Below are positions 20,042 through 35,854 of a stretch of DNA of 64,000 nucleotides, piece after piece. The notes beneath the pieces were generated by a model. It worked only from the letters and a program-made list of their open reading frames with translations. It did no database searches and had not been told where the DNA came from. Positions within the stretch are counted from its first letter, which is position 1. Every line of letters starts with the position of its first letter. Both the position numbers and the translations under genes were made by a program. Origin of the DNA: a virus; the IMG/VR virus record IMGVR_UViG_3300043399_000633, positions 32,887 to 96,886 of that record; one strand, written 5' to 3'.

Positions 20042-21670
20042 TTAAATACTACTATATAGTTCCGTATTGACAAATTCTAAATTTTTTTTAGTCCACTCAT
20101 ATACCGAAATTAATCTATTTGATTCTAACATACCTATACTACTAAACTTTTGATAGTATAAGTAACTACAATCGATTAAGTTTTGTACTTTATGTTTATT
20201 TTTAAATAGATTTCTTTCAGTGTTGTATGTGACCTGGTATGAATTTCTACTGTTGTAGATGTAAAATAATATCATTCCTTCATACCATTCACGTTCATTC
20301 ATTGAATATGTGCTCACTACAGCTTTGGGTATTACCCAATTTTTTTGAATTTGATTATTAAATGCTTCTCCATGTCCTACGATTTCTATTTTTTTAATTA
20401 CTAATTTAAATTTGTCAATATAAGACTGATTTGCGGCAGGGGTATTAGGTAAAATTTCAAATGGCAAATGGTGAGCAAACATGTCCAACGTACCTGCTTC
20501 TGCCATATTATTCTCTAAATTTTTCAATGTTTGTCCTGGTAACCCCCAAATAAAAGTAAGTCTATTGGTATATTTTATGTGTGAAATATTCCCATACTTG
20601 TTTTTAATATTAATAATTAACTGTTTGTGGTCTGGCCACGGTACCTCTGGTCTGTTGATATTTTCGAGTACAGTTTTATCTAAATCTTGAAGATCAAATT
20701 TATATCCTTTAGTGACTTCGGCTTCTATCATCTTATCAAGTAAATAGAATACTTTTTGCTTATTCAATTTACTCCACTGGGGATTGAAAATCTCAGGACC
20801 TTTATTGTTATTATTTATTTTTTTCTCGCACCAATACTCTATGATGTGTTCGTCTTGAGGCGTTAATCCAACGTTTGGATTAGTCCAATACACAAAAGAT
20901 AAATTCCATTCAAAAAAAAGGTCTATTTCTTTTCTCCATAATGGTTCTAATTCATCCTTACCCCATATTCTTACTTTGTTGTGTAACCCGGAACTCCAAT
21001 CACAAAAACTACATGCATATGGGCATCCTTTTGTCGTTTCCCAAACTATTAGTAATTTGTGATCAATATTATCTACGGGAAAATAGGTTTTAAAATACTC
21101 TTTAATATCTTCCAAAAAAGAGAAAATTTCATTCTTATATTCAATATAAGGACTCTTACTAAGTGTTTTTTTATTAACGAACACCTCATGAGGGTAAACT
21201 GTTGTACTATCAGCCGCATTTATAAGTTTTACATCATGCCCGGCTAAAAAATCTAGTATTTTAGTAAATGCATCTTCACCGTCACCGTATACGGCAAAAT
21301 CTATGTAATAGTTATCTACAAAAAAACTTGAATTTTTATGAGCATCTATCTCGGGTCCTCCCACAATGATTATTAAATTCTCAAATAGTGACTTTAACTG
21401 TTTTGCTAGACTAAAGAAAAATTCACGATTCCATACATAAACACTAAATGCTAAAATGTCAATTTTTTCTTTGATAATCAGATCAGTTAGTATTTTTAAA
21501 TTGTCTTCAATATGATTCAGTAAAAACAATGGAGAAGTCCAAATATATTGATTTTTAGATAACCCCGTTGTTTGATGATTTATTTTCAAAAACCAATGTA
21601 TTGGTGACACATAATACTGAAGCGTCGCCGGACATGAGCTTGTAATTGTTTTTATTTTTTTCATGATCAA
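20042..21670 (-). CDS. Cobalamin-binding radical SAM protein
   Basis: FSVYVWN, GGPE, GDGE, KGCPYACSFC, GLPG. Confidence 0.9.
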   Translation of the reverse strand: MIMKKIKTITSSCPATLQYYVSPIHWFLKINHQTTGLSKNQYIWTSPLFLLNHIEDNLKILTDLIIKEKIDILAFSVYVWNREFFFSLAKQLKSLFENLIIIVGGPEIDAHKNSSFFVDNYYIDFAVYGDGEDAFTKILDFLAGHDVKLINAADSTTVYPHEVFVNKKTLSKSPYIEYKNEIFSFLEDIKEYFKTYFPVDNIDHKLLIVWETTKGCPYACSFCDWSSGLHNKVRIWGKDELEPLWRKEIDLFFEWNLSFVYWTNPNVGLTPQDEHIIEYWCEKKINNNNKGPEIFNPQWSKLNKQKVFYLLDKMIEAEVTKGYKFDLQDLDKTVLENINRPEVPWPDHKQLIINIKNKYGNISHIKYTNRLTFIWGLPGQTLKNLENNMAEAGTLDMFAHHLPFEILPNTPAANQSYIDKFKLVIKKIEIVGHGEAFNNQIQKNWVIPKAVVSTYSMNEREWYEGMILFYIYNSRNSYQVTYNTERNLFKNKHKVQNLIDCSYLYYQKFSSIGMLESNRLISVYEWTKKNLEFVNTELYSSI

Positions 21671-22263
21671 GTAAGCAAGTGTGGGTATTTTTTAACGAAG
21701 TCATGAAAAGTCAAATTAAAGAAAGAAAGAGTAAAGATTATTCGTGTATTTTCAATATTTTCAATGCTGTGTGCCTGCCTAACACTCAAAGCATACCATT
21801 TATTGATTTCTAAATGATACTCTTTGTCTACTGTCAAATCTTCATATTTAAATACATTTCCTGTACCTGGCCCGGATTTAAAATCTCCATGTGTAGTGTA
21901 CATTACAGTTTTAACATCTTTCCCTCCATCTTTGATATAAAAATTCAATGCAAAAATCCTTACCCGATCTGCATGCGGAGGCCAACATGCATATTGAAAT
22001 TCTTCTTCTCTTATGTTTTTAATTACACCGACTGCTGCTTTGAAATCCTCTTCGAAGAAATTTTCAAATTCTTTCTTTGCTAAGTAATTTAACTCCATGT
22101 CATCTTCAACAAATTTTCTAGAAACACTGTTTTTTTTGTAATCTTGTATTTTGTCATGCATTGCCTTTAACTCTAACTCTAATGGAGCAGAGTTAGCGAT
22201 TCGGTACGCTGCATTTATAATATCCTCTGAGGGCATTGGAATATTTTTTAATTCTATAATCAT
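21667..22263 (-). CDS. 2OG-Fe(II) oxygenase-like protein
   Basis: PHAD...HSI.N...R. Confidence 0.6.
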   Translation of the reverse strand: MIIELKNIPMPSEDIINAAYRIANSAPLELELKAMHDKIQDYKKNSVSRKFVEDDMELNYLAKKEFENFFEEDFKAAVGVIKNIREEEFQYACWPPHADRVRIFALNFYIKDGGKDVKTVMYTTHGDFKSGPGTGNVFKYEDLTVDKEYHLEINKWYALSVRQAHSIENIENTRIIFTLSFFNLTFHDFVKKYPHLLT

Positions 22264-22271
22264 GTCAATAT

Positions 22272-23474
22272 TTATGTCATCGGGATAGGCTTACTATGCA
22301 TTTCTATAAATTTTAATGGTTTGCCGGTCGAATCGTAGTTAATAAATTTGGGGTTAATGCCATGGATCATCTCCATTACCTGTCCATAATGAAAATCTCT
22401 TTCTTTTTGTGATACCAGTGGGCTTTTGAAAAACCAATTACTATGCTCTTGGAAAAAATATCCTGATGGTTTTTCAGCTTGGAAAATAAATTCTGACCAT
22501 TGTTCGTATAATATTTTTTTAAAGAATATGTCATGGACGAGAAAAGCATCTGCTCCGCTAGGAGTTTTGACCGTAATTTTGTCATAAAAATCACATTTAA
22601 TTTCTCGATTACATATAGGTTCCATTATCCTTTTTAAAATAAAACACTGCTTTTGCCACAATTCCGGCATGTCTACTGTATAATAAAAATGCTCTGTTTT
22701 TGGCTTAAATCCAGCAAAAGCAGCACTGTTGTAATTTCCCCAAACAGTAGTGACGTCATCAAAATATACATAGAATTTTTTATTACCTGGATAAAAAGCC
22801 ATCCTTGGTTTATCACACCCTGTTAATAATGCGGTACTACCTTTATCATTATATTTTCTCAGTAGTTCTCCTATCAAGTTGTGACCTGCCAAGCTGGGGG
22901 ATGCTCCTAGTCCTGAAACCGGAAGTGTATGTAATTTGTTTTGCAGAATTAAATCAATAGCATGGGTAGTGTGATCTAAACATGATATTTTAATTTTTGG
23001 AAATTTGTTGGCAATTTCTTTAAGTTTAGGTTCGGCGGCCTCGCTGTATTCAAATATCAAATTAGATGCTTTTCTATTAGTTCTATCAAAATAAGGTTTT
23101 AATTTTTCTATGGCCTGTATGGGATAGGTCGTTACAATCTCATCAATGTGAATACCATTGTCTAAAAAACTATCTATAACATTGTTACTATCAGCTCCGC
23201 CGCTGTACGCAACGACAATGAAATCATACTTACTTCTTAACTGCTCTGCTCTATCTTTATACAATGTTTTTAGTGATAGCGGGCTTTCATTTTTCCAATT
23301 TAAAGAAGAATAAAAAGAGTCAAAATAATGGTATTTGACTTCTATACTATTACAAGAAGATGCATATCGCAAACATTCAGCTTTATCGAAAAAGTAGTGG
23401 TTATTGGAGCTCCAATAACCACTACTAGTTTGTAAAGCAATATTTTCTGCTTCGAAAACGTTCGTCAGCATCAT
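22272..23474 (-). CDS. PP-loop protein, paralog of 17585..18811
   Basis: SGGADS, GCDKP. Confidence 0.75.
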   Translation of the reverse strand: MMLTNVFEAENIALQTSSGYWSSNNHYFFDKAECLRYASSCNSIEVKYHYFDSFYSSLNWKNESPLSLKTLYKDRAEQLRSKYDFIVVAYSGGADSNNVIDSFLDNGIHIDEIVTTYPIQAIEKLKPYFDRTNRKASNLIFEYSEAAEPKLKEIANKFPKIKISCLDHTTHAIDLILQNKLHTLPVSGLGASPSLAGHNLIGELLRKYNDKGSTALLTGCDKPRMAFYPGNKKFYVYFDDVTTVWGNYNSAAFAGFKPKTEHFYYTVDMPELWQKQCFILKRIMEPICNREIKCDFYDKITVKTPSGADAFLVHDIFFKKILYEQWSEFIFQAEKPSGYFFQEHSNWFFKSPLVSQKERDFHYGQVMEMIHGINPKFINYDSTGKPLKFIEMHSKPIPMT

Positions 23475-24307
23475 AGACCGTATTTTTTCATTGTTTCGAC
23501 ATACAATTCCAAAGCCTCTTCTTTTTCTTTTCCTTGCAATTGAACTGGACCAGCACCCATGGCTTTTAGTTCTTCAGTCCAACCTGAATGTTTAATTGCA
23601 GTTTCTAAGCAACTAATTGCTTTTTGTTTTTGTTCCGGTGTTGCATTTTTGTGTATAAATGCTCCATTGAAACTTACGCTTTGTAATTTTACATTTCCTC
23701 TTACGTAAGGTTTGTTAAATTCAACTCTAAACAGTTCTTTGATTTCTTTAAATTGATTTAACCAATTTAAACCACTAGTGGCACTAATAAAATATACATC
23801 TAAATCTCCATTCATGATTAAAGGTAATGCTTTAGCATCACCTCCAGTGGGAATAATTTGTATGTTAGGGTTTTGTTCTTTTAATTGAAGGGCCATGATA
23901 TGATGTGAAGTTCCTAATCCCGGAATTCCTATATTAATTTTTTGTGTTAATAACGCATCCCAGTCTATAGCCTCCTTCTTTGCTAATGCAAGAACAGGCG
24001 CAGCTATCAAAATCTTATATAGTTCAATCGGTGGATTTTTTACTGGGCTTTTGTTACCAAATAAAACAGGTGAGCCCAAATATATCATGTTAGGAAAATC
24101 TCCTATAAAATTGACAGCAGGCACTGACATTCCTCCTGGTCTATAGAATACTTGAAATTCAGAATTATATTTTTGTAATAATCTTGCATATCTATCAGAT
24201 GTGCCTCCGGGAGGGAAATCTATAACGACACCGCATCCATGTGTTTGTTGTGCATGACTGCTCATAGTTGCCCATAACAATACAAAAATTGCTAAAATTT
24301 TCTTCAT
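23471..24307 (-). CDS. Bug/TctC solute-binding protein
   Basis: Signal peptide, FPPGGTSD..AR, G.GTSHH. Confidence 0.8.
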   Translation of the reverse strand: MKKILAIFVLLWATMSSHAQQTHGCGVVIDFPPGGTSDRYARLLQKYNSEFQVFYRPGGMSVPAVNFIGDFPNMIYLGSPVLFGNKSPVKNPPIELYKILIAAPVLALAKKEAIDWDALLTQKINIGIPGLGTSHHIMALQLKEQNPNIQIIPTGGDAKALPLIMNGDLDVYFISATSGLNWLNQFKEIKELFRVEFNKPYVRGNVKLQSVSFNGAFIHKNATPEQKQKAISCLETAIKHSGWTEELKAMGAGPVQLQGKEKEEALELYVETMKKYGL

Positions 24308-24377: not shown

Positions 24378-24406
24378 TTGACAAATATCGAAAACAATGC
24401 TATTGT
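24378..24406 (+). promoter_or_regulatory. Sigma70-type promoter
   Basis: TTGACA-17 nt-TATTGT with extended TG. Confidence 0.55.
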
Positions 24407-24444
24407 TTCAACGTAATTTTTTACCAGGACTAAATAAAGATACT

Positions 24445-24585
24445 ATGAATAACTTTACTTGTAACAATATACTAAAACATGAAGGATTATGGTTTATTGC
24501 AGCCATGACAACCTTTGCGCCGGTATATCCTACAAGTATCCGTGGCTCAGAGGATAACCAAAGAGGTAGCCCGGGGACTAGGTAA
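24445..24585 (+). CDS. Putative 46-aa leader peptide containing all 20 amino acids
   Basis: ATG after TAAATA; stop 25 nt before a terminator; no clear SD. Confidence 0.45.
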   Translation: MNNFTCNNILKHEGLWFIAAMTTFAPVYPTSIRGSEDNQRGSPGTR

Positions 24586-24610
24586 AGTCTAACATAGAAA
24601 AGATTTATCT

Positions 24611-24645
24611 AACCCCTGGGAAACTAAAAAGTCCCAGGGGTTTTT
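24611..24645 (+). terminator. Intrinsic terminator (possible attenuator)
   Basis: AACCCCTGGGA/TCCCAGGGGTT stem followed by T-run. Confidence 0.75.
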
Positions 24646-24653
24646 AGTTTGTG

Positions 24654-24851
24654 TTGACAATAAATGGAGAATAGACTAGAATATGGAAAGTTGACAGTCA
24701 CACTTAAGTGTGAATGGCAAAAAGGTAAAAAGAAAAATTTGACAATAAATGGAGAACAGAATAGAATATGGATCGTTGACAGATACAAATTCGAATCTGT
24801 TCAAAAAGATAGAAAAAAACTCTTGACAAAAAATGGAGAAAAGATTAGAAT
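24654..24851 (+). promoter_or_regulatory. Three tandem sigma70-type promoters
   Basis: TTGACAA(T/A)AAATGGAGAA.AGA.TAGAAT at 24654, 24739, 24823. Confidence 0.7.
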
Positions 24852-25130
24852 ACAAAACTTACAAATTTACAGATTGGTCCAAGCATCTATATCTAACGGA
24901 ACAGCAACGCAAGCAATTGATCGCTGAGAAGTTAGAAAGAGCAAGGATTCAATATCTCGCTACGCAAAGGTCACCTCATAAAGTGGCTCAGTAGCAAAGT
25001 GTGAATGGGAAACGTGGTCCCGAGGCGCACTTAAAACATGTCTCAAACGGGCGGACTGTAGGATGAAGCCTCTTGTGTGAGGTGAAAAATTACAGGCTAG
25101 GGTATAACCCTAGCATAGCGTAGAAATACG

Positions 25131-25207
25131 CTATTCTATAGTGTACTGAACGAACAATGCCCCATGCTTTTGGCGCATGGATCGGCCCTCAGTGTACTAT
25201 AGAATAG
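25131..25207 (+). repeat. Long-stem hairpin family member
   Basis: 19-bp stem with G.U pairs. Confidence 0.7.
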
Positions 25208-25214
25208 TGTATAT

Positions 25215-25289
25215 AGGGGGTTCGCCAAGTGGTAAGGCATCTGATTTTGATTCAGACATTCGGTGGTTCGATCCCATCACCCTCTGCCA
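25215..25289 (+). tRNA. tRNA-Gln(TTG)
   Basis: Cloverleaf, CCA. Confidence 0.9.
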
Positions 25290-25290
25290 A

Positions 25291-25430
25291 TCTAATATAT
25301 TCTAGCACTTAGAGAATGACTGCACGGGACTGTGGAGCAAAGCAGGAACCCGGCGGCAATAATTGGGTGGTAGCTTGAACCCTACTTCTTGATTCTCATT
25401 CTGGTTCACTGAGTGCTAGAATATATTAGA
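25291..25430 (+). repeat. Long-stem hairpin family member
   Basis: 21-bp stem enclosing about 98 nt. Confidence 0.7.
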
Positions 25431-25435
25431 TACAA

Positions 25436-25510
25436 GCCTGGTTAGCTCAGCGGTAGAGCAGCGTCTTGATAAGGCGTTGGTCGGTGGTTCGACCCCACCA
25501 CTAGGCACCA
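25436..25510 (+). tRNA. tRNA-Ile(GAT)
   Basis: Cloverleaf, CCA. Confidence 0.9.
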
Positions 25511-25518
25511 CAAATTAT

Positions 25519-25595
25519 GGGCCATTAGTTCAGTTGGTAGAACGCCTGCCTTGCAAGTAGGATGTCGTGGGTTCGATTCCCACATGTGTCCACCA
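25519..25595 (+). tRNA. tRNA-Ala(TGC), bulged acceptor
   Basis: Cloverleaf, G3.U70, CCA. Confidence 0.85.
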
Positions 25596-25604
25596 AAAAC
25601 AAAC

Positions 25605-25645
25605 TGGGATTATTGTCAGTCAGGTCAGACGGCTCAGTTCGAAGT
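25605..25645 (+). pseudogene. Truncated tRNA 5' half upstream of HNH gene
   Basis: D arm GTC-AGTCAGGTCA-GAC; no T arm or 3' acceptor strand. Confidence 0.5.
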
Positions 25646-25694
25646 AACCGTTCAACATTCTTCGTTTGTGATAAATACATCAAGGAGAATAAGT

Positions 25695-26159
25695 ATGTTA
25701 CTTCAATCATCTAAAATCAAGTGCAGGCACTGTGAGAAATTAATTTTTCCGCATAGTGTCACCAGGCACGATGCGGTGTGTCATCTTCACCCGGACAATA
25801 TAAGACTATGTAAGATATGTAACGAGCCAATTTTTAATTGGCGAGAATCAAAGGGAACATGTTCACATGCATGTGCTAATAAGCTGTTCAGAACAGGTGA
25901 AAATCATGGGAATTGGAAACCAGAACGGTATCAAACTACTTGTTTTGAACACCATGAAAGAAAATGTGTAGTATGTGGGGAAGATAAAGTAGTTGCGGTC
26001 CATCATCTAGACCATAGCAAGAAAAATAATCACCCTTCAAACCTGATTCCAATGTGCCCGACGCATCACCAATATTGGCATAGTAAGTATAGAACATTAA
26101 TTGAGGATAAGGTTCTATCTTACATAGAATCTTGGAAGAAAAAGAATAACTCTCTATAG
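25695..26159 (+). CDS. HNH endonuclease with zinc fingers
   Basis: CVVC...VHHLD...N...NLIPMCPTHH; AGGAG RBS; stop inside tRNA-Pro. Confidence 0.85.
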   Translation: MLLQSSKIKCRHCEKLIFPHSVTRHDAVCHLHPDNIRLCKICNEPIFNWRESKGTCSHACANKLFRTGENHGNWKPERYQTTCFEHHERKCVVCGEDKVVAVHHLDHSKKNNHPSNLIPMCPTHHQYWHSKYRTLIEDKVLSYIESWKKKNNSL

Positions 26160-26225
26160 CGTAACCAGGTAGCGTTCCTGATTTGGGGTCAGGAGGTCGG
26201 GGTTCGAATCCTCGTAGGGAGACCA
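26150..26225 (+). tRNA. tRNA-Pro(TGG)
   Basis: Cloverleaf, CCA. Confidence 0.9.
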
Positions 26226-26231
26226 AACATT

Positions 26232-26326
26232 GGAAAGTAATGCAGGCATATTGGTGTGCCGACTAGTTTCGAAAGCTAGGTTCCCATGTGACATGGGATG
26301 GGGTTCGATTCCTCTGCTTTCCGCCA
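26232..26326 (+). tRNA. tRNA-Ser(CGA), 8/4-type fold
   Basis: 8-bp acceptor, 4-bp T stem, 6-bp D stem, long variable arm, GCCA. Confidence 0.75.
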
Positions 26327-26330
26327 GTTT

Positions 26331-26392
26331 TAGGATGCTAACAGCAAATTTTAACATCAAACTGCTAATTTGAAACGTTAAAACGCATCCTG
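26331..26392 (+). ncRNA. ACAGCAA-stem (Y-RNA-like) RNA with anticodon-loop cargo (GCT)
   Basis: TAGGATGC/GCATCCTG stem, TAACAGCAA, TCAAA-CTGCTAA-TTTGA. Confidence 0.65.
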
Positions 26393-26404
26393 TGATATAT
26401 CTGT

Positions 26405-26481
26405 TGGGGTGACATACGACGGGAAGTATACTGGGCTTTGAACTCAGGTCTTAGTCGGTTCGAATCCGACCACCCTTGCCA
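26405..26481 (+). tRNA. tRNA-Gln(TTG), atypical D arm
   Basis: Cloverleaf, CCA. Confidence 0.8.
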
Positions 26482-26518
26482 AATTTTTTGTCAGCATAGT
26501 TTGTCACTAAATAGTGAT

Positions 26519-27343
26519 ATGAATATTTCCTATGCTGATAATGGATGGACTGTGTTCATCAACGATGATCTAACCACATTGTCTAACGACGAAATAAAGC
26601 AAGTTGCTAAATTCGTTGTTACAAATATGGTTGTTGTGTTCAAAAAACAAAACCTTACTCCAGAACAGGAATTAAAATTCTGTAGAGTGATAGGCAATCA
26701 CCAGTACTACCCTGCTTCGTATGAACGAGGAAAGCATATCAGATTGAATGACGGTATACTTAGGGTGACTGGTAAAAAAAATGAATATGGCGAACCTGGA
26801 CTTTTTGGCCATACTTCTGCACTTGATTGGCATGCCAATCAACCTAGTAACAAAGAACGTAAGCCATTGATTTGGTTGTACGGTGCAGAAGGGACTAAGG
26901 GTTCAAGAACAAGCTGGCTCAACAATATTGCTAGCTATCAGGATTTGCCCACTGATCTCAAAAATGAAATTGATAGTCTACAAGTTTTTTGTGGATACGC
27001 AAAAGGCAAGTATTCTAATAGTTCTTATTTTGTAGAACATGTCAATGAGTCTAATCCCATTGATCTTGTTCAAACAAACAAAGAAGGTAAGAAGGGATTG
27101 TTTTTTCCATTCTTACAAATATTCGGCTTTAAAGATAAAGACGAACAGTATTTCAACAAAATAATGCAACAATTGATCGATCATGTCGTTCAAGAAAAGT
27201 ACATGTATCATCATGATTGGGATGACGGAGATGTTGTCATTTCAGAACAAATATTAAGCATCCACAAACGTTGGGCTTTTGATGATATGGAAAATCGTGT
27301 GTTGCATAGAATTGCGTTTGACTATTCAAACGTATACAAATAA
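26519..27343 (+). CDS. TauD/TfdA-family dioxygenase
   Basis: VVVFK.Q.L, WHAN, W..GDVVI...HKR, R.L.R. Confidence 0.85.
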   Translation: MNISYADNGWTVFINDDLTTLSNDEIKQVAKFVVTNMVVVFKKQNLTPEQELKFCRVIGNHQYYPASYERGKHIRLNDGILRVTGKKNEYGEPGLFGHTSALDWHANQPSNKERKPLIWLYGAEGTKGSRTSWLNNIASYQDLPTDLKNEIDSLQVFCGYAKGKYSNSSYFVEHVNESNPIDLVQTNKEGKKGLFFPFLQIFGFKDKDEQYFNKIMQQLIDHVVQEKYMYHHDWDDGDVVISEQILSIHKRWAFDDMENRVLHRIAFDYSNVYK

Positions 27344-27348
27344 TCATT

Positions 27349-27423
27349 GCTCGGTTCGTCTATCGGTTAGGACGCTGGCCTTTCACGCCGGAAAGAGGGG
27401 TTCGACTCCCCTACCGAGTACCA
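27349..27423 (+). tRNA. tRNA-Glu(TTC)
   Basis: Cloverleaf, CCA. Confidence 0.9.
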
Positions 27424-27432
27424 AACAATTTT

Positions 27433-27508
27433 GCCGCTTTAGCTGATGTGGTCATAGCAACGGTTTGAAGCATCGTGGAACTAGGTTCGATCCCTAGAGG
27501 CGGCACCA
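27433..27508 (+). tRNA. tRNA-Phe(GAA)
   Basis: Cloverleaf, CCA. Confidence 0.85.
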
Positions 27509-27514
27509 AACATT

Positions 27515-27590
27515 GCCCGCGAAGTATTAGCTGGTGGTATGCCGCCTTCGTAACGCGGAGGATTCAGTTCGAGGCTGAACGCGGGCACCA
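27515..27590 (+). tRNA. tRNA-Thr(CGT)
   Basis: Cloverleaf with 31-39 mismatch, CCA. Confidence 0.75.
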
Positions 27591-27592
27591 AT

Positions 27593-27681
27593 AGTGAGAT
27601 GCCAGAGTTGGTCTATTGGCACTGATTGGAAATCAGTTGGTCGGAAACGGCACAAGGGTTCGAATCCCTTTCTCACTGCCA
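27593..27681 (+). tRNA. tRNA-Ser(GGA)
   Basis: Long variable arm, CCA. Confidence 0.9.
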
Positions 27682-27684
27682 AAT

Positions 27685-27752
27685 TTGACAACAAATGCAC
27701 TTGGTGATATACTATGTGCATACGCTGAGAAATCAGCGACGATCTTTAAAAA
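27685..27752 (+). promoter_or_regulatory. Promoter plus boxB/boxA-like antitermination leader
   Basis: TTGACA..TATACT, GCTGA-GAAA-TCAGC, GATCTTTAAAAA; similar at 28337, 31556, 36747, 40181. Confidence 0.6.
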
Positions 27753-27754
27753 GT

Positions 27755-27939
27755 TGTGTTCTTAAGGCTGATGACGGCAATCGTCAGAAGGCTTTAATCC
27801 AACCCCGAGCAGAGTAGCTTTGCCGAGCGAAGTGTTAGGGAGTCTCTATCATTTAGCGGATAGGATACCGGCTCATCGAGCGGGTCACGGTGGGTTCGAA
27901 TCCCCCTAGAGTTTATTGGACGTCAGCCTTAAGAACATA
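27755..27939 (+). ncRNA. Unknown structured RNA enclosed by 19-bp stem
   Basis: TGTGTTCTTAAGGCTGATG/CGTCAGCCTTAAGAACATA; internal GGTTCGAATCC T-loop. Confidence 0.55.
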
Positions 27940-27945
27940 TAGTAT

Positions 27946-28020
27946 ACACCGTGAGGCAGCTGGAGTGGCCGATAGTCCTTCAAACTATTGAGATGGGATC
28001 AAAACCCATACGGTGTACCA
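27946..28020 (+). tRNA. tRNA-Glu(TTC), atypical (C33, ATCAAAA T loop)
   Basis: All four stems pair, CCA. Confidence 0.7.
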
Positions 28021-28027
28021 ATCACAT

Positions 28028-28103
28028 GCCGTAGAGTCCACCTGGGGGTGATACTTCACTGTCTATGAAGCAGCGGCGGGTTCGATTCCCGTCTACGGCG
28101 CCA
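28028..28103 (+). tRNA. tRNA-Asp(GTC), atypical
   Basis: Cloverleaf, CCA. Confidence 0.8.
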
Positions 28104-28175
28104 AAATTGAGAACTTCAATGAACACGAGGAGTTTAATTCATGAAGCGTCCTTCATGGTCTCATTCAATTTCTAT

Positions 28176-28254
28176 TCCGCGGAATCCGAGCGTGGTGCAC
28201 GGACTTGACTGTTAATCAATGACTAGCTGGGATCGTCACCCAGACGCGGAGCCA
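28176..28254 (+). tRNA. tRNA-Asn(GTT), atypical
   Basis: CTGTTAA loop, ATCGTCA T loop, GCCA. Confidence 0.7.
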
Positions 28255-28433
28255 AACATTAAGACTTTAAATAATCATACTTAAAGTCTGACTAATGGTT
28301 GACAATAATTCGTGCAGGTGCTACAATACATGCATGAGTTGAGAAATCAACTAGTTCTTTATACAATTTAACGGTTTCAAGGTATTACGTTAAAGAGACA
28401 CTGGGTTTTCACTAGTGTTCGTTGACGTAACGT

Positions 28434-28538
28434 GATACCATATTTCAACGCATTAGTGGAGGTTTGCTCAGTAATAGCAACCTTTAAATGAGATGGCTCT
28501 GATCTTATCACGCCAATAGTGTGTTGAAATATGGTATC
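28434..28538 (+). repeat. Long-stem hairpin family member
   Basis: GATACCATATTTCAACGCATTA/TAGTGTGTTGAAATATGGTATC. Confidence 0.75.
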
Positions 28539-28539
28539 G

Positions 28540-28623
28540 GGAGGTTTGGCAGAGCGGTCGATTGCGCCTGACTGTAAATCAGGTCTTAACAGCACGGTGG
28601 TTCGAATCCATCAGCCTCCACCA
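28540..28623 (+). tRNA. tRNA-Tyr(GTA)
   Basis: Cloverleaf, CCA. Confidence 0.9.
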
Positions 28624-28629
28624 ATTATC

Positions 28630-28728
28630 GGGCACGTAAGCATCTAGCGGAAGATGCTACTCGCTGTGTTGCCATGAATACAGCAAATAAGGAGGAGAGT
28701 GCAGGTTCGAGTCCTGTCGTGTCCACCA
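28630..28728 (+). ncRNA. tRNA-like RNA with elongated anticodon arm
   Basis: Acceptor with G3.U70, D and T arms, ACCA; about 38-nt central arm. Confidence 0.65.
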
Positions 28729-28941
28729 AAACAATCCTTGAGTTTGACTGGTCTGCGCGCGGCTTGTTAATAGTTGGGAATGTCACTTTCGACAGTGACC
28801 TCAAGGGCCCCAAGTTATGGAGATAGAAACTGACAGATTGAATTAAGTCCTCGTGGAGGCGGATACTGGTTCAATGGTCAGCGGATAACGTGGACGGCGT
28901 ATGGGTCATGCCTATACGCAGGCGGTCTCCACCAAGATATA

Positions 28942-29010
28942 GGCTTTAGAGTGATTGGAAATCCTATCTCTTTCATGAGGAGATGTTGCGAGGTTTGAAT
29001 CCTCGATAGC
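28942..29010 (+). pseudogene. Degenerate tRNA(CAT)-like sequence
   Basis: ATCTCT-TTCATGA-GGAGAT arm, T arm; poor acceptor, no CCA. Confidence 0.4.
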
Positions 29011-29102
29011 CCACACAAGTATCCCACACACATCGAATGGTGCGGTAAGGAATCAAGAGATTCTGTCGTGGGAAGTCTAGCAAAAAGCCGTGACGGCTAG
29101 AC

Positions 29103-29179
29103 ACCATAGTTCAGCACATTTTGAAGAAACCCGAGGTCTTCTACGACGGGACGGGGCTCTTAGTGTGCTGAACTATGGT
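29103..29179 (+). repeat. Long-stem hairpin family member
   Basis: ACCATAGTTCAGCACATT/AGTGTGCTGAACTATGGT. Confidence 0.75.
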
Positions 29180-29226
29180 AAAGGAGTAATTAACCTCAAC
29201 CATACTCGGAAGTCATGACTCCGAGG

Positions 29227-29353
29227 ACCCGTGGTAGTTTAATGGCAAAATGAGAGAGATGATGGGTTCGTGACCCATCCGTCCTTAGTCGGGGCGTAGG
29301 TTAAGTGTAAACCGCAGACAGATGAGGGTTTCGAAACCCCTCCCACAATGGGT
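29227..29353 (+). ncRNA. Anticodon-less double tRNA-elbow RNA
   Basis: D arm, T arm, hairpin, D arm, T arm, closed by terminal stem. Confidence 0.55.
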
Positions 29354-29434
29354 TAATATTCAAATTGCTAAAGTAAAATGCTAAAAACCTCAAGTAAATG
29401 ATAAATAGTTACACAACTACTATAGCATTTTACT

Positions 29435-30139
29435 ATGAATTACAAGAACATTTACCATACTCTGATTACTAGAGGCAAAGAAAGAAAGATTGAATCTGAA
29501 TATAAGGAAATACACCATATTATTCCTCGTTGTTTGGGTGGATCAGATGAGATAGAGAATCTGGTCGAACTAACTCCAGAAGAACATTATGTTGCCCATC
29601 AACTCTTGATAAAAATCTATCCAGATAATCATTCTTTAATTTACGCAGCAAGGATGATGATTGTCAATCGTCCATCAAATAAATTGTATGGCTGGCTTAG
29701 AAGAAAATACGCCGAAGCGGTGTCAATAAATCAAACTGCCGAAGGGAATTCTCAACACGGAACTAAATGGATAACAAATTTACAGGGCGAACAAAAGAAA
29801 ATAGAAAAAAGTTTGGTAATTCCCGAAGGATGGGTTGCAGGTAGAAAAAAATTGAGCACTTGTAAATATTGTAACGCATCGTATCTAAAAATTACTAATA
29901 CAATATTTTGTTCAGTGATTTGTAAATCATCTTATACTCAGGAAATATTGAGTACTCGGATGAGTAGTAATAACCCAATGAAGGACCCATCTGTTGCTAA
30001 AAAGCAAGCAGATAAGGTAAGAGGTAAGAAAAAGAGCCCACACAAGAGAAAACGAACAGAGGATCACAATCAAAAATTATCGGTTGCGTCGAAGTTGGTC
30101 TGGGAAAAAAGAAAACAATCTAAAGTGGCGGTAGACTAA
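29435..30139 (+). CDS. HNH homing endonuclease
   Basis: EIHHIIPRCLGG.D...NLV.LT.EEHY.AH.LL; upstream 12-bp inverted repeat around ATAAATA. Confidence 0.9.
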   Translation: MNYKNIYHTLITRGKERKIESEYKEIHHIIPRCLGGSDEIENLVELTPEEHYVAHQLLIKIYPDNHSLIYAARMMIVNRPSNKLYGWLRRKYAEAVSINQTAEGNSQHGTKWITNLQGEQKKIEKSLVIPEGWVAGRKKLSTCKYCNASYLKITNTIFCSVICKSSYTQEILSTRMSSNNPMKDPSVAKKQADKVRGKKKSPHKRKRTEDHNQKLSVASKLVWEKRKQSKVAVD

Positions 30140-30191
30140 TTGGATAAGTCGCGGCGAAATGGTGGTTTCGAAGTCCACCCCACAATGGGTT

Positions 30192-31515
30192 ATTATATTT
30201 CAGCGCATTAGCACTGGCTGCTACCACAGTCAGACGTATTGGTAGATATGCTGGGCAACAACGCCGCCCGGGTAGTGTGCTGAAATATGGTAAGCCTTAA
30301 TCCAACTGAGGAACAAAAGATCGTCAGAGTCGCGTCTGGTAAAGATCAAGTAGTTCCAATTAGGTGACTCAAGGCTGGTTCCCGGCGGGGAGCCATATTG
30401 AAGCACATTTCTTGGCTAGTAGCGGAAAGAATACTTAATCGGGTCAACGAGCCTTTACTCCTCCCGAAGAACGGTATCGTAAAGATATAAGGACCGTCTA
30501 TGTATTGTGAAGTGTGTTTCAATATGGTATGAGAGCCTCTTCAACGACCAGAGTGTCTATTATTGTTGTGGAGATAAAATAGTAGACCGATCTAGATTGG
30601 GCAGTGTCCACTACTCATAATTTGCTCATACCATTTACCATATTAAAACACATTAGCCTACCTCCACCGAGAGGTAGTTAAAGATAATGACAAGCAACAG
30701 CCAGTGTGTTTCATCGAGACATGGTCTTACTCAAGGATCGCGGTGTTGGGAAGAACGGGAATACATAACCGTCTGTAAGCAATCCTGCACATTGAGAGGG
30801 GGTGGAATTCCCCCACCATATTAAAACACATTAGCCTACCCAAGGGCTTGTAGACAGTGGTTGGAAGGATCTACACAAGTGCTATCGCAAGAGGCAGGAA
30901 CCATCCAGGTGGTGCTGGACCCTGCGGGGGCTTCGAAATCCTCAGATAAGCCGTAGTGTGTTTTAATATGATAAGGATACATATGTTGTATGATATTTGA
31001 TGGAACACCATGCTTTCTCATGTCATATAGCAAAAGTGGCAGGTTTGTAGCGTACCTGTTGTATAAAAACGCTATGATCATATTGAAACACATTGATCCT
31101 AACGATTGTTTAGGAAGACTGGCGATTGTTCAGCAGTGTGTTTCAATATGGTAAATGCGTAGGCTGATACGCAACTTTGAGTTCGGTGCGGCAAGCCACA
31201 CAGGTAAAGCTGGTGGCATGGCTCTTCAAAAATCCAGCATGCGGGAGATCAGCACCCGCTACCATAGTTCAACACATTTCTAATGTACAAACAACTACCC
31301 GGGTTAAGTTGGGAAGTGTGTTGAACTATGGTGAATAGGGCCTCGCTCACTAAGGTCCGTTAAGAGCGAGCAATGCCAGCAGGACGGATCTGAGATAGCG
31401 AAGGAAAGTGGGCAGAGGCTGGCTTCCATAGTTCAACACATTCTACCCTACCTCGGCTGGAACGGCTGTGCGAGGATAGGCGAACAGACCCGTTTGAGTG
31501 TGTTGAACTATGGAA
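30192..31515 (+). repeat. Array of 7 long-stem hairpins alternating with 89-108 nt structured spacers
   Basis: Starts at 30192, 30393, 30637, 30815, 31077, 31261, 31424; arms ACCATA(T/G)T.AA.CACATT and AGTGTG.TT.AA(T/C)ATGGT. Confidence 0.8.
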
Positions 31516-31601
31516 CTTGACACAAATTAGTAAGAGTGCTATACTGTGTATCTGTTGTTGAGTGATCAGCACAAATTCTTTAAAAACTTAATTACAATAC
31601 T

Positions 31602-31715
31602 TCTTAGTATTGTTGAGCATACTAGGCTATATCGGTATACTTAATTGGAACCGTACTCCTATGTTAGCATGACGGCTAGGCATCATGTGCTATAGTGTGT
31701 TCAACAATGTTAAGA
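31602..31715 (+). repeat. Long-stem hairpin family member
   Basis: About 23-bp stem; right arm nearly identical to that at 40285. Confidence 0.7.
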
Positions 31716-31720
31716 TTTTT

Positions 31721-31809
31721 GGGTGTTGCTCCCTGTTGCCGGCTGTAACCCGGTAGGCGTTGTTAAGCAGGGCGGTTGCCAAATGGTTCGACTCCTTCAA
31801 CACCCACCA
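31721..31809 (+). tRNA. tRNA-Tyr(GTA)-like, rewired/pseudoknotted D domain
   Basis: 8-bp acceptor, CTGTAAC loop, T loop, ACCA; no D hairpin. Confidence 0.65.
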
Positions 31810-31819
31810 AAAATTTAAT

Positions 31820-31939
31820 GGGGCCTTAGTGTAATGGTAGCATGTTTAAAGACGGTTATCCTGATAGGATACGGACAGCAAACTTTCTCAATTCCACGAT
31901 AAGGAAAAGGTCCAGGTTCGAATCCTGGGGGCTCCACCA
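31820..31939 (+). ncRNA. CCA-ended tRNA body with permuted ACAGCAA stem replacing the anticodon arm
   Basis: GGGGCCT/GGGCTCC acceptor, D and T arms, TATCCT-GAT-AGGATA-CGGACAGCAA. Confidence 0.65.
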
Positions 31940-31947
31940 AAGTTATT

Positions 31948-32023
31948 GCCCTCTTGGAGCAGCGGAGTGCTCGTCGCCCTGTCACGGCGAAGGCCACGGG
32001 TTCGAATCCCGTAGGGGGCGCCA
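31948..32023 (+). tRNA. tRNA-Asp(GTC)
   Basis: Cloverleaf, CCA. Confidence 0.9.
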
Positions 32024-32027
32024 AATT

Positions 32028-32084
32028 TAGGATGCTAACAGCAAATTTTACTCAACTTTCAATTGGTGAAAAAAATGCATCCTG
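32028..32084 (+). ncRNA. ACAGCAA-stem RNA with anticodon-loop cargo (TTC)
   Basis: TAGGATGC/GCATCCTG, CAA-CTTTCAA-TTG. Confidence 0.65.
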
Positions 32085-32095
32085 TCATTTTTAAT

Positions 32096-32169
32096 GGTGT
32101 CTTTAGTGTAGTGGAAGCAAAACTGACTGTGAATCAGTAGGCGAGGGTTCGATTCCCCAAGACACCCCA
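32096..32169 (+). tRNA. tRNA-His(GTG)
   Basis: G-1:C73, CCA. Confidence 0.85.
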
Positions 32170-32177
32170 AACAATTT

Positions 32178-32217
32178 GCCCCAGTAACTCAGTGGACTAG
32201 AGTACTGTGCTACGAAC
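32178..32217 (+). pseudogene. tRNA-Arg(ACG) 5' half truncated after the anticodon loop
   Basis: Acceptor 5' strand, D arm, CTACGAA; followed by HNH gene. Confidence 0.7.
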
Positions 32218-32252
32218 GTTGGAACTTTTGTTCGCAAATGATAAATAAGTAT

Positions 32253-32966
32253 ATGAATTACATAAAACATTATAATATACTTATTAATCGGGCAAAAATC
32301 AGATCATTGACAGAAGATTACGAAACGCACCATATTGTGCCCAAATGTTTGGGTGGAACTGATGATTTTGATAATCTTGTTAGATTGACTCCTGAGGAGC
32401 ATTATACTGCTCATCTATTGTTGGTAAAAATCTATAATAGCCCACCATTAGTATACGCCGCACAAATGATGGCGGTGAGTAGTAAACATCACCGAAGGAA
32501 TAACAAAATGTATGGCTGGCTAAAACGCCGGTACATTGAAATATGCCGCCAACGGATAGGAAATAAAAACGGTAGCTTTGGTAGACATTGGTATACCAAT
32601 CCTTCAACATTAGAAAGCGGTAAATTTGAGGATAGTAAAGTACCTGCAGGGTGGATAAAGGGCCGCAGAATTAAAAAAGAATTAAAACCTAGAAAAACTA
32701 CTACATGCGGATCATGTGGTAAGAATACAAATTCTCACAAGGCCAAATTGTGTAGTGATTGTAAACCGCTTAGTTCGGTGAGACAAGAAAAACAAAAAAT
32801 GTTTTTTTCAGATGAAGAAAAAATAAATGCTTTAAAACTTTTTGACGGAAAAATACGCCCTGCTCTGTTTCATTTAGGATTAAATGACAGTGGGGTACAT
32901 TACAGATGCATGAAAAAATTAAAAGCGTCTTTATACCCTCTGGCTACGAACCAGTTGAAAGGTTAA
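32253..32966 (+). CDS. HNH homing endonuclease
   Basis: ETHHIVPKCLGG.D...NLVRLTPEEHY.AH; paralog of 29435 gene. Confidence 0.9.
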   Translation: MNYIKHYNILINRAKIRSLTEDYETHHIVPKCLGGTDDFDNLVRLTPEEHYTAHLLLVKIYNSPPLVYAAQMMAVSSKHHRRNNKMYGWLKRRYIEICRQRIGNKNGSFGRHWYTNPSTLESGKFEDSKVPAGWIKGRRIKKELKPRKTTTCGSCGKNTNSHKAKLCSDCKPLSSVRQEKQKMFFSDEEKINALKLFDGKIRPALFHLGLNDSGVHYRCMKKLKASLYPLATNQLKG

Positions 32967-33004
32967 CTGGATACATAGAGGTTCGAATCCTCTAAGACGC
33001 GCCA
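32925..33004 (+). tRNA. tRNA-Arg(ACG)-like with D-loop element 3' of the anticodon arm
   Basis: GCGTCTT/AAGACGC-GCCA, CTGG-CTACGAA-CCAG, perfect T arm. Confidence 0.6.
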
Positions 33005-33155
33005 AATTTAAGGATAGACGGTAGATTAGAGTCCCGAGCAATCTAACATATCAGGGGATATGTGAAGAACAACGTGATTGTAAGGTCGTTAAACTCATCT
33101 ATACGAGACAATCCATCGAGGTCGGGTAACGCCGAATAGGTGGGCGCCAAATATT

Positions 33156-33230
33156 GCTGATATAACACAGAGGTAGTGTACTTTCTTGGTAAGAAAGAGG
33201 TCACTGGTTCGAATCCAGTTATCAGCACCA
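33156..33230 (+). tRNA. tRNA-Thr(GGT)
   Basis: Cloverleaf, CCA. Confidence 0.9.
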
Positions 33231-33234
33231 GTTA

Positions 33235-33346
33235 GGGGATACTTACAGCAACATCTATCAAACGATAGGTAGTTGGTTCGATTCCAACTTTTTCCACATG
33301 GGAAAATAGCTCATTAGGTAGAGCATTCGTCAAGAAATGTATCCCG
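33235..33346 (+). ncRNA. YrlA-like RNA (circularly permuted tRNA domain on ACAGCAA stem)
   Basis: GGGATAC/GTATCCC stem; order T arm, closed acceptor hairpin, D arm. Confidence 0.75.
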
Positions 33347-33459
33347 TTTTATTAGCAAGAATTCTTGCAAGAAGAAACCACTGCGACCTTAGCCTGGGCG
33401 GGCGGTATGTCAGTTACGAAACAGTTGGGTAAGAGTCCTTATGCCTAGGCACAAATTTT

Positions 33460-33587
33460 GGAGATGTGATGTAATGGTAGCATAGCACAGCAAAAACCGT
33501 ATTCTGTTTTAGCATACGTGCAGCAACATCTTAGCTATCCCTCTGTGAAAGGGCTTGACCGTGGTTCGATTCCCGGCGTCTCCACCA
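33460..33587 (+). ncRNA. CCA-ended tRNA body with permuted (G)CAGCAA stem and His-like anticodon hairpin
   Basis: GGAGATG/CGTCTCC-ACCA; CGTATTCT..AGCATACG-TGCAGCAA; CCCT-CTGTGAA-AGGG. Confidence 0.65.
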
Positions 33588-33593
33588 AACATA

Positions 33594-33669
33594 GTCCAGT
33601 TAGTTCAGCGGTATGAACGCTACCCTGACACGGTAGAGGTCACTGGTTCGATCCCAGTACTGGACACCA
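33594..33669 (+). tRNA. tRNA-Val(GAC)
   Basis: Cloverleaf, CCA. Confidence 0.9.
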
Positions 33670-33719
33670 GTAGTTGACGATAATTCCGCAGTGTAGTATA
33701 CTGCATATATCGTTTTTTA

Positions 33720-33813
33720 AAGGAGATTGACATGAAACGAGGTAAACTGTAGTGTCATCTTGAGACTCCGTATGGTCCAGGATGGCACGTTAAAGAAAAC
33801 AAAAATACGACCA
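33720..33813 (+). other. SD plus 6-codon mini-ORF (MKRGKL) plus hairpin/pseudoknot
   Basis: AAGGAG, ATG 33732, TAG 33750, 11-bp stem starting at the stop codon. Confidence 0.5.
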
Positions 33814-33814
33814 T

Positions 33815-33889
33815 CCCAGAGAAACTTTGAAGGTGAAGTCCGGCCTCTTAAGCCGAGAGAACTGAGTTCGATTCTCAGCCCTGGGACCA
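33815..33889 (+). tRNA. tRNA-Lys(CTT), atypical
   Basis: CTCTTAA loop, CCA. Confidence 0.7.
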
Positions 33890-33892
33890 TTA

Positions 33893-33968
33893 CGGAGTAT
33901 AGTGAAACGGTTATCACAGCAGACTTTTAATCTGCCAATTTTGGGTTCGAATCCCAGTGCTCCGACCA
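33893..33968 (+). tRNA. tRNA-Lys(TTT)
   Basis: Cloverleaf, CCA. Confidence 0.9.
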
Positions 33969-33976
33969 AAATATAT

Positions 33977-34052
33977 GCGGGTATAGCTCAGTCGGTAGAG
34001 CAGTAGACTTTTAATCTATTGGTCGTGGGTTCGAATCCCCCTGCCCGTACCA
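33977..34052 (+). tRNA. tRNA-Lys(TTT)
   Basis: Cloverleaf, CCA. Confidence 0.9.
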
Positions 34053-34154
34053 TATAAAAGCACATTAGTTACGTTGGGCCGAAAGCTGGAAAGGACAAGT
34101 AACCGCCAGGTTAAAACGGGAGACCCAAAGTGTGATAGTGTGCTTCTATATGGT
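34049..34154 (+). repeat. Long-stem hairpin family member overlapping both flanking tRNA ends
   Basis: ACCATATAAAAGCACATTA/TAGTGTGCTTCTATATGGT. Confidence 0.75.
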
Positions 34155-34226
34155 GATGTAGCATTAAGGTAATGTACCACCCTCATAAGGTGTCCTAAGG
34201 CGGTTCGATTCCGCCCATCACTACCA
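34152..34226 (+). tRNA. tRNA-Met/Ile2(CAT)
   Basis: Cloverleaf, CCA. Confidence 0.85.
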
Positions 34227-34241
34227 AATAAGGAGAATATC

Positions 34242-34424
34242 ATGAAAACTGTATACTTTGAGAATTATAGAAATCATGAAAAATTTGAATGTCACGACTT
34301 GAAAGATATTCGTGTCATCGACGGTATTGAATACCTCAGAGTTTTTAGATTTGGTACGCAACGAGATTGTCTTGTGCGCAAAGACCAACTTAGGAAACTC
34401 AGTAAGAATGAAAAGCCGATGTAG
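34242..34424 (+). CDS. Small hypothetical protein
   Basis: AAGGAG RBS; stop inside tRNA-Phe. Confidence 0.7.
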   Translation: MKTVYFENYRNHEKFECHDLKDIRVIDGIEYLRVFRFGTQRDCLVRKDQLRKLSKNEKPM

Positions 34425-34490
34425 CTCAGTTGGTAGAGCAGCGGACTGAAAATCCGTGTGTCACTGGTTCGAACCCGGTCTTCGGCACCA
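34415..34490 (+). tRNA. tRNA-Phe(GAA)
   Basis: Cloverleaf, CCA. Confidence 0.9.
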
Positions 34491-34497
34491 TATTAAT

Positions 34498-34583
34498 GCC
34501 CCGGTGCAGGGAATTGGCAGACCGGCAGTGTTGAGAACGCTGTGACGCAGGACGTGTGGGTTCGAATCCCACTCGGGGCACCA
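34498..34583 (+). tRNA. tRNA-Leu(GAG)
   Basis: Long variable arm, CCA. Confidence 0.85.
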
Positions 34584-34588
34584 GTTTA

Positions 34589-34690
34589 GGGATGACTACA
34601 GCAACACAAATTTCTGCAGCCATATTTTGCAGGCCAGCCCAGTAGGGGTGTGTCGTGGGTTCGACTCTCGGCTTTAGACACATCATCCAG
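34589..34690 (+). ncRNA. ACAGCAA-stem RNA with three-hairpin cargo including a T-arm-like hairpin
   Basis: GGATGA/TCATCC, CTACAGCAA, GGGTTCGACTC. Confidence 0.6.
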
Positions 34691-34698
34691 TTTTACAT

Positions 34699-34773
34699 AT
34701 CTCTGTAGTTCAATGGACAGAATGATTCTCTCCTAAAGAATAGATATCGGTTCGATTCCGGTCAGAGGTACCA
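34699..34773 (+). tRNA. tRNA-Arg(CCT)
   Basis: Cloverleaf, CCA. Confidence 0.9.
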
Positions 34774-35019
34774 AAAATCAACATCCGACCTAACGCAGGC
34801 AACTGAGGAAGTTCGGGACTTGTGGCAAGTGCGTGTGGGAGGGATGTTCATAGCATGCCGTTAATACCACCGTGATATAACAAGCAACACAAACAGAACT
34901 AGGTAACACTTGCACTATTAGTTCGGGTTGTGGCGAAGATGAATGTTAGGATAAAACAGAATCCCGGCTATGGGATGTTGATTTGACAGAAAAGAATAAA
35001 TGATTTATAATAAGAATAT

Positions 35020-35094
35020 GGGACATTAACTCAGCGGAAGAGTCTTGGTCTTCGAAACCAATGGTCGGGGGTTCGAATCCTCTATGTCCCTCCA
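35020..35094 (+). tRNA. tRNA-Arg(TCG)
   Basis: Cloverleaf, CCA. Confidence 0.85.
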
Positions 35095-35848: not shown

Positions 35849-35854
35849 AATTTT

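Follow-up and report, generated by a model that had tools for sequence, protein, structure and literature searches.

To our knowledge, the way in which giant phages regulate large sets of tRNA genes is not known, and we know of no description of tRNA genes under leader-peptide attenuation. A search of the literature found no description of an attenuator placed before phage tRNA genes. The question is raised by a short open reading frame (ORF) at the head of a tRNA array in a 64,000-nucleotide stretch of virus DNA (the window, to which all coordinates refer). The window belongs to an IMG/VR contig of 96.9 kb, which is present in freshwater metagenome runs and is estimated to represent ~27% of the genome of a giant phage. 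According to ARAGORN, 41 tRNA genes lie on the + strand at 25215-42482; together they cover all 20 amino acids and, by simple wobble rules, all codons of the leader but four. The genes to the left of the leader (20042-24307) lie on the minus strand, and the leader thus lies in intergenic DNA between divergently oriented genes, where the RNA island begins on the left (Table 1). The original prediction, made from the letters of the DNA, took the ORF and the terminator behind it for an attenuator that would raise transcription of the island when almost any tRNA was scarce or cleaved. Is this small ORF a sensor of decoding capacity acting on the genes behind it, and is its all-amino-acid content part of that function?

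The island itself holds several further elements. A GOLLD RNA (226 bits) lies inside it at 40734-41198, with a tRNA-Ile gene (40798-40870) within the GOLLD span, and three HNH endonuclease ORFs and a TauD-family dioxygenase are found among the tRNA genes (25551-26159, 29435-30139, 32238-32966, 26438-27343). The stretch between the second small ORF (ORF2) and the first tRNA gene, 24995-25215, is kept in relatives and includes the island's first long inverted-repeat hairpin (~25131-25210); this stretch had no match in Rfam, and 24999-25186 is well represented among RNA-library contigs from the relatives.

Table 1. Features of the leader region and the start of the tRNA array
Feature	Position	Strand	Description
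Upstream promoter	24378-24406	+	promoter of the leader unit: TTGACA and TATTGT hexamers 17 nt apart, TG preceding the -10
5'UTR motif	24424-24438	+	near-invariant CCAGGACTAAATAAA with far-spaced Shine-Dalgarno-like AGGA; (nearly) invariant columns in two alignments
Leader ORF	24445-24585	+	46 sense codons, 37 distinct, all 20 amino acids; stop TAA 24583-24585
Hairpin B	24487-24508	+	inside the ORF; tip of a long folded domain, 24455-24540 (-24 kcal/mol, z = -4.1)
Candidate segment 1	24540-24547	+	CCGTGGCT; can pair with AGCCCGG, 24568-24574
Segment 2	24570-24576	+	last ORF codons CCCGGGG (codons 42-44); pairs with terminator 5' arm, 24614-24620
Hairpin D	24581-24609	+	stop codon in 5' arm; brings segments 2 and 3 together
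Intrinsic terminator	24611-24646	+	GC-rich stem of 11 bp with a 10-nt loop, then the U tract; segment 3 is the 5' arm, 24614-24620
Tandem promoters	24654-24851	+	three, near-consensus (TTGACA, 17 nt, TAGAAT), ~85-nt period
ORF2	24833-24994	+	53 aa; ATG 10 nt after the start of the third promoter's -35
First tRNA gene	25215-25289	+	tRNA-Gln; first of 41 genes, array end at 42482

The leader ORF and its relatives

The ORF had been described as 46 codons long, with 37 distinct codons and all 20 amino acids, and as using CGT, AGA and AGG besides every Gly and every Ile codon; this description holds for 24445-24585, where GGA/GGC/GGT/GGG, ATA/ATT/ATC and CGT/AGA/AGG all occur in the codons for the leader peptide (MNNFTC...SPGTR). 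No one amino acid is enriched, the commonest accounting for at most 5 of the 46 residues. The codon diversity, which the original prediction had proposed to compare with simulated counts, lies above expectation: at least 37 distinct codons have P = 7e-4 under the phage's own codon usage and P = 0.012 against random sequence matched to the base composition of the ORF, which is more balanced, and the corresponding probabilities of finding all 20 amino acids by chance are 0.02 and 0.03. None of the 101 other ORFs of 40-55 codons in the contig reached the leader's codon diversity. Synonymous resampling with the peptide fixed gave an expectation of 31.6 ± 1.8 distinct codons (P = 0.0025), and the family-wide excess under this resampling had a mean z of +1.9. 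The high codon diversity may in part be a by-product of GC-rich RNA helices that force the use of rare codons.

Protein searches returned homologous short ORFs of 43-59 residues with 48-87% identity, and alignment-driven scans added 17 + 38 viral loci and 12 metagenome loci. The family so defined has ~50 distinct DNA loci and 68 unique peptides, several of them on contigs of 350-525 kb. The leader element marks the head of a tRNA array: among loci with at least 700 nt of downstream flank, a same-strand tRNA gene was present within 1.5 kb downstream in 44 of 44 (median distance 486 nt), and none of 49 loci had a tRNA gene in the 1.2 kb upstream. The family shares a layout of promoter, 5'UTR with the near-invariant motif, ORF, 22-32 nt of spacer, terminator, a second, near-consensus promoter after a gap of 15-35 nt, and then ~450 nt to the first tRNA gene. 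Two leader copies, L040 and L047, lie ~290 kb apart on one 524,565-base IMG/VR contig, each followed by a tRNA-Arg gene, which may reflect two tRNA arrays in one phage or a chimeric assembly. A bacterial genome collection gave two short partial matches only, probably due to chance, and no convincing copy of the leader. Viral contigs held no relatives of the 278-aa upstream neighbour and no match to the exact triple-promoter pattern, and a phage GenBank search with the region matched the tRNA-Gln only. Against Rfam the leader gave nothing above noise (His_leader, 17.3 bits with a gathering score of 49, E = 4.9; Trp_leader_2, 19.3 bits, below the gathering score of 100), and the leader peptide had no match in Pfam, PHROGs or the ESM Atlas.

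The leader ORF is conserved across the ~50 loci and carries a coding signature there. Its frame is open in all loci; indels within the ORF are all multiples of three, whereas those in the 5'UTR and the spacer are not; and synonymous changes make up 52% of the single-base codon differences when these are read in the ORF frame, as against 23% and 18% in the other two frames. The C-terminal half is strongly conserved at the amino-acid level, and the block F24-G34 (FAPVYPTSIRG) is conserved position by position, with codon positions 1 and 2 fixed save for an Ala/Val exchange and the third position variable in 7 of 11 codons. We take these patterns as strong indirect evidence that the leader ORF is translated. 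The Shine-Dalgarno sequence is weak, as the original prediction had cautioned (AGGA 15 nt 5' of the ATG, as against 6-9 nt for similar motifs elsewhere in the phage).

Is the presence of every amino acid itself maintained? Homologous leaders have drifted to ~50% identity and still use 34-38 distinct codons, most of them with all 20 amino acids, so that the codon diversity is kept despite drift. All 20 amino acids are present in 57 of the 68 unique peptides, and the remaining 11 are without one to three of C, D, V and H. The nulls with which this count was compared are crude (the tree comes from 45 residues, with an F81-like substitution model) and all point in the same direction: column shuffles gave 22.7 ± 3.3 complete peptides (maximum 34 in 5000 shuffles), an independent-site tree simulation that kept the composition and number of changes of each column and started from a complete root gave 24.5 ± 6.6 (maximum 45 in 400 runs), and shuffles within clusters of ~78% identity gave 52.7 ± 1.5 (P = 0.0013). 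The family exceeds these nulls because the single-copy residues E, D, V, C and H sit in different columns in different clades. Relocated Cys and His residues alone were no commoner than a rough chance estimate, and the statistical case for completeness therefore rests on the whole-peptide tests. Pan-amino-acid sensing would be a function supported statistically, not one that is proven. A pure sensor that needs each amino acid once does not need the conservation of the FAPVYPTSIRG block.

Predicted folds at the end of the leader

The intrinsic terminator starts 26 nt after the leader stop codon. With its U tract (24611-24642) it has a predicted energy of -19.6 kcal/mol (z = -3.1), and across 50 loci 98.8% of the cells in its stem are paired, with three covarying pairs. 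The original prediction held that CCCGGGG at the end of the ORF can pair with the 5' arm of this terminator. The pairing was confirmed and is kept in 50 of 51 loci, the exception being L059, which has a one-base insertion and a moved stop codon. Segment 2, hairpin D stacked on top and the terminator 5' arm together make one hairpin (the 2:3 hairpin, 24566-24622) of -21.5 kcal/mol (z = -3.2). It is the fold predicted for nascent RNA ending at 24622 or 24631, and the terminator is predicted in the full RNA only. The minimum-energy fold joins the ORF end to the terminator arm by 5-11 bp in 50 of 51 loci, and the mean energies over the loci are -20.2 kcal/mol for the 2:3 fold versus -17.3 kcal/mol for the terminator. 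In the same proportion of loci (50 of 51), no stretch of the 5'UTR, ORF or spacer pairs better with the terminator arm than one that starts 14-18 nt before the stop codon.

The 2:3 helix was 93.7% paired in a 50-sequence alignment, and one of its pairs is C-G in 45 sequences and U-A in 4, the latter from three lineages (L003; L011/L013; L065). The amino acids encoded by segment 2 vary (SP, VS, YS, IQ, DQ, YR) while third positions and pairing are kept, a reversal of the coding pattern that shows selection on the RNA. RNAalifold on 20 sequences returned hairpin B, a hairpin over the conserved block, hairpin D and the terminator, with compensatory pairs in B, D and the terminator. Changes in hairpin B compensate at three pairs (CG 32 / UA 9; AU 19 / UA 11 / UG 10); in hairpin D, compensatory pairs in the consensus were CG 12 / UA 6 and UA 14 / GC 2, and its base pair reads GC 39 / AU 7.

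Two further sequence relationships within the leader were considered. As the original prediction stated, the window's terminator has a loop (24621-24630) complementary to the terminator tail (24641-24650), and the match is exact; among relatives, complementarity of at least 8 nt occurs in only 5 of 50, and it was dropped as a feature. The 5'UTR motif CCAGGACTAAATAAAG (24424-24438) resembles the ORF end GGGGACTAGGTAAAG (24573-24587), and the terminator loop also has ACTAAAAAG. The three may be a common binding site or have a common partner, and no covariation explaining their resemblance was seen. Pairing of the 5'UTR CCAGG with the ORF end showed no covariation and was not specific in register, and the 5'UTR was dropped as an alternative partner of the ORF end.

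We consider it probable that the leader attenuates transcription through the ribosomes that translate it, and that it samples every amino acid in doing so. The reading of the locus as an attenuator is well supported by comparative evidence. We infer that the leader is translated and that its translation is coupled to the polymerase, and likewise in which direction the switch responds and how this benefits the phage physiologically. The host-type upstream promoter would start a short RNA with the 46-codon leader, in which the last codons, the stop-codon hairpin and the terminator arm would fold into the 2:3 hairpin and block the terminator. By established footprint sizes, a ribosome whose A site holds the stop codon would protect roughly 15 nt on the 5' side and 12 nt on the 3' side. 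Segment 2, which lies 7-13 nt before the stop codon (for the 2:3 helix of the family, 4-8 nt), would fall within the expected footprint of such a terminating ribosome, which would mask segment 2 and the 5' arm of hairpin D and leave the terminator exposed. A ribosome keeping pace with the polymerase would then allow the terminator to form and the RNA to end at ~24646, and one lagging at any slow codon would allow the 2:3 hairpin to form, with read-through past the downstream promoters, across ORF2 and into the tRNA array. Because every amino acid and ~37 codons are present, the leader would report general decoding capacity and not the supply of one amino acid; the slow decoding could stem from amino-acid or tRNA shortage, tRNA cleavage or ribosome inhibition.

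An attenuator could also work by position. A candidate segment 1 can pair with segment 2, and this 1:2 helix appears in the minimum-energy folds of the RNA to 24600 and of the full RNA; 85% of its cells are paired and its five inner pairs are kept, with some covariation (8 cells, a value reached by 1 of 500 shuffles). If untranslated RNA formed the 1:2 helix and hence the terminator, only a stall at about codons 27-37 (VYPTSIRGSED) would mask segment 1 and free segment 2, so that the leader would sense several amino acids, not all, and the rest of its 20-amino-acid content would be irrelevant to regulation. The FAPVYPTSIRG block suits this alternative, resembling known regulatory codons in that identity is kept and third positions vary. 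We nevertheless hold it to be unlikely: of the seven pairs, the two outer ones fail to form in 20 of 50 loci, the 2:3 hairpin is far stronger, and completeness maintained through relocated single-copy residues outside the block is left unaccounted for. Since the 2:3 hairpin is much stronger than the 1:2 helix, we lean towards predicted read-through, not termination, of untranslated RNA; with read-through as the default, a delay at any codon would count, which fits an all-amino-acid leader. Of the classic antiterminator geometry claimed in the original prediction, the 2:3 pairing stands (50 of 51 loci), and the classic four-segment layout is unclear, with segment 1 weak.

Selection on the RNA of segment 2 also bears on whether the ORF could be an independent micropeptide gene, transcribed from a promoter of its own up to an ordinary terminator and lying beside the array by synteny. 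Its peptide would act, for example, on the ribosome, tRNA metabolism or host defence, and the pairing would only shape the 3' end of the mRNA. The unit does have its own promoter and terminator, the array is served by a separate promoter, and the C-terminal half of the peptide is strongly conserved at the amino-acid level. A plain terminator would, however, be defeated by the alternative hairpin, which exceeds it in stability and takes up its 5' arm; segment 2 keeps its nucleotides while its amino acids change; a functional 45-residue peptide has no obvious reason to retain the full set of 20 amino acids; and no known family was matched. We judge the micropeptide gene to be quite unlikely.

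Very unlikely, in our view, is that the terminated ~235-nt RNA, possibly with the peptide, acts in trans and that the switch mainly sets the amount of RNA released. The whole leader RNA is unusually structured (z = -3.6), hairpins B and D covary, and attenuator RNAs and leader peptides with functions of their own have a precedent in rnTrpL / peTrpL of Sinorhizobium (PMC6614838, PMC7968998). An RNA of this kind would be putative and without a known target; its action would be compatible with attenuation in cis, and it does not account for completeness.

Nascent peptides such as SecM and TnaC stall the ribosome, and SecM's ...PVW...GIRAGP is a motif that we take to resemble the FAPVYPTSIRG block, as a lead only. 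A nascent-peptide arrest sensor, in which W16 ... FAPVYPTSIRG, lying in the exit tunnel, would stall the ribosome when a specific ligand or factor is present and the RNA fold would depend on where the stall occurs, is consistent with position-specific amino-acid conservation amid synonymous variation and with a geometry in which a stall at ~G34 would free segment 2, but its spacing is unlike SecM's and completeness is again not accounted for, so that we rate it as highly improbable.

Promoters, ORF2 and the expected effect of read-through

An upstream promoter matching at least 10 of 12 positions was present within 200 nt of the ORF in 52 of 52 related loci, its -10 ending ~36-41 or ~62-77 nt before the ATG. 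In about half of the relatives (L003-L005, L006, L031 and others) the promoter lies ~65-77 nt upstream, and the longer 5'UTR there has an extra A-run, hairpin and U-run (-9 to -14 kcal/mol) resembling a small terminator, which is absent or vestigial in the window.

The three promoters behind the terminator, a caveat of the original prediction, are borne out: they lie at 24654, 24739 and 24823, and each matches 11 of 12 consensus positions. A promoter of this kind behind the terminator is a trait of the family, seen in ~45 of 51 relatives at a distance of +77 to +97 counted from the stop codon. The unit of promoter plus ORF2 start occurs in three copies in the window (24654-24860), in two in L002 and L021 and in one in most others; the first two copies in the window open other frames (24664-24927, 24749-24826), which are probably meaningless. 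The ATG of ORF2 is embedded in the promoter spacer in 35 loci, with TTG there in six more, and in the window the -10 hexamer of the third promoter encodes residues 5-7 of ORF2. The product has the motif '...FTDW..LTxEQxxQLIxEKxERAxIxxxA' and a moderate coding signature, synonymous changes making up 41% of single-base codon differences, and had no match in Pfam, PHROG or the ESM Atlas.

With its ATG inside the promoter, ORF2 has a start codon located 5' of the point at which that promoter would begin its transcript. Relatives with one promoter could therefore translate full-length ORF2 only from RNA that has read through the attenuator, and the duplicated or triplicated promoter of the window and its two nearest relatives, L002 and L021, would uncouple ORF2 from the switch. 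In the relatives, the clearest output that would depend on read-through is ORF2. Read-through would add only part of the transcription of the array, since almost every locus has a strong promoter behind the terminator, and the size of the switch's effect on tRNA output in the window's own phage is doubtful because of the three promoters downstream. RNA-library contigs from relatives (85-93% identity) cover 24425-24466 and 24739-25186, and one of them begins within the terminator U tract of a relative and extends across the promoter; as metatranscriptome contigs, all from relatives, they can neither show RNA ends nor exclude DNA, and they are a hint at most.

A wider proposal, which we put forward tentatively and at somewhat less than even chances, is that in a clade of freshwater giant phages a leader selected for completeness acts as a 'ribosome speedometer' gating read-through into the tRNA array and ORF2. 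If true, the virus would measure the speed of host translation directly and couple the result to its own supply of translation parts, giving feedback control of phage decoding capacity, and the same device could also be an alarm for host attacks on tRNAs or ribosomes. It would be the first case known to us in which the completeness of a peptide, rather than its sequence, is selected. The leader element is small and self-contained, and later use as a compact general sensor of translation stress would be possible.

Comparison with known attenuators

Of the features that define an attenuator, the locus has a leader ORF, judged by sequence evolution, a terminator just 3' of it and an antiterminator that a ribosome at the ORF end could mask. 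Enrichment for a regulatory codon was not found, and a promoter lies between the attenuator and the genes. With the classic leaders (trpL, hisL, leuL, thrL, pheL; PMC1183508) the locus shares a short leader ORF, here with a coding signature, and an intrinsic terminator, as well as an upstream pairing at the leader's end that cannot coexist with the terminator and, as predicted here, control by ribosome position. Unlike them, it has no run of codons for one amino acid and a 1:2 element that is weak or doubtful; tRNAs, not biosynthetic enzymes, lie downstream, and an independent promoter intervenes.

A multipurpose translation-stress uORF, as proposed here, is described for toiL of E. coli topAI-yjhQ, where one uORF responds to many translation stresses and stalls at different positions remodel the RNA, unmasking a ribosome-binding site and relieving Rho-dependent termination (PMC12121999). 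The output differs, an intrinsic terminator and antiterminator here taking the place of Rho and the ribosome-binding site, and toiL is much shorter, unrelated in sequence and directed at another target.

The closest known mechanism would be, by analogy, the uORF attenuator of mycobacterial whiB7, in which good translation leads to termination and translation stress to an antiterminator and read-through; read-through has also been proposed for the untranslated leader (bioRxiv 10.1101/2023.06.02.543512). The starvation response of whiB7 needs the amino acid in question in the uORF: that of M. smegmatis holds 19 of the 20 amino acids, and removal of its Trp codons abolished the response to Trp (bioRxiv 10.1101/2023.06.02.543512). 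The two systems differ in several respects. They have no sequence relationship; whiB7 is a transcription factor, whereas here a phage element would gate a tRNA array and a small ORF; alanine makes up 25-40% of the whiB7 uORF but 3 of 46 residues here; and a promoter follows the terminator here. The whiB7 uORF is variable between species (bioRxiv 10.1101/2023.06.02.543512), whereas here half of the peptide is conserved and completeness is apparently selected. Both have a rho-independent terminator preceded by a rather long uORF whose peptide is varied in composition, and in its amino-acid content the phage leader has what pan-amino-acid sensing, predicted for it, would call for, with 20 of 20 amino acids in 46 codons and the full set in 57 of 68 homologues.
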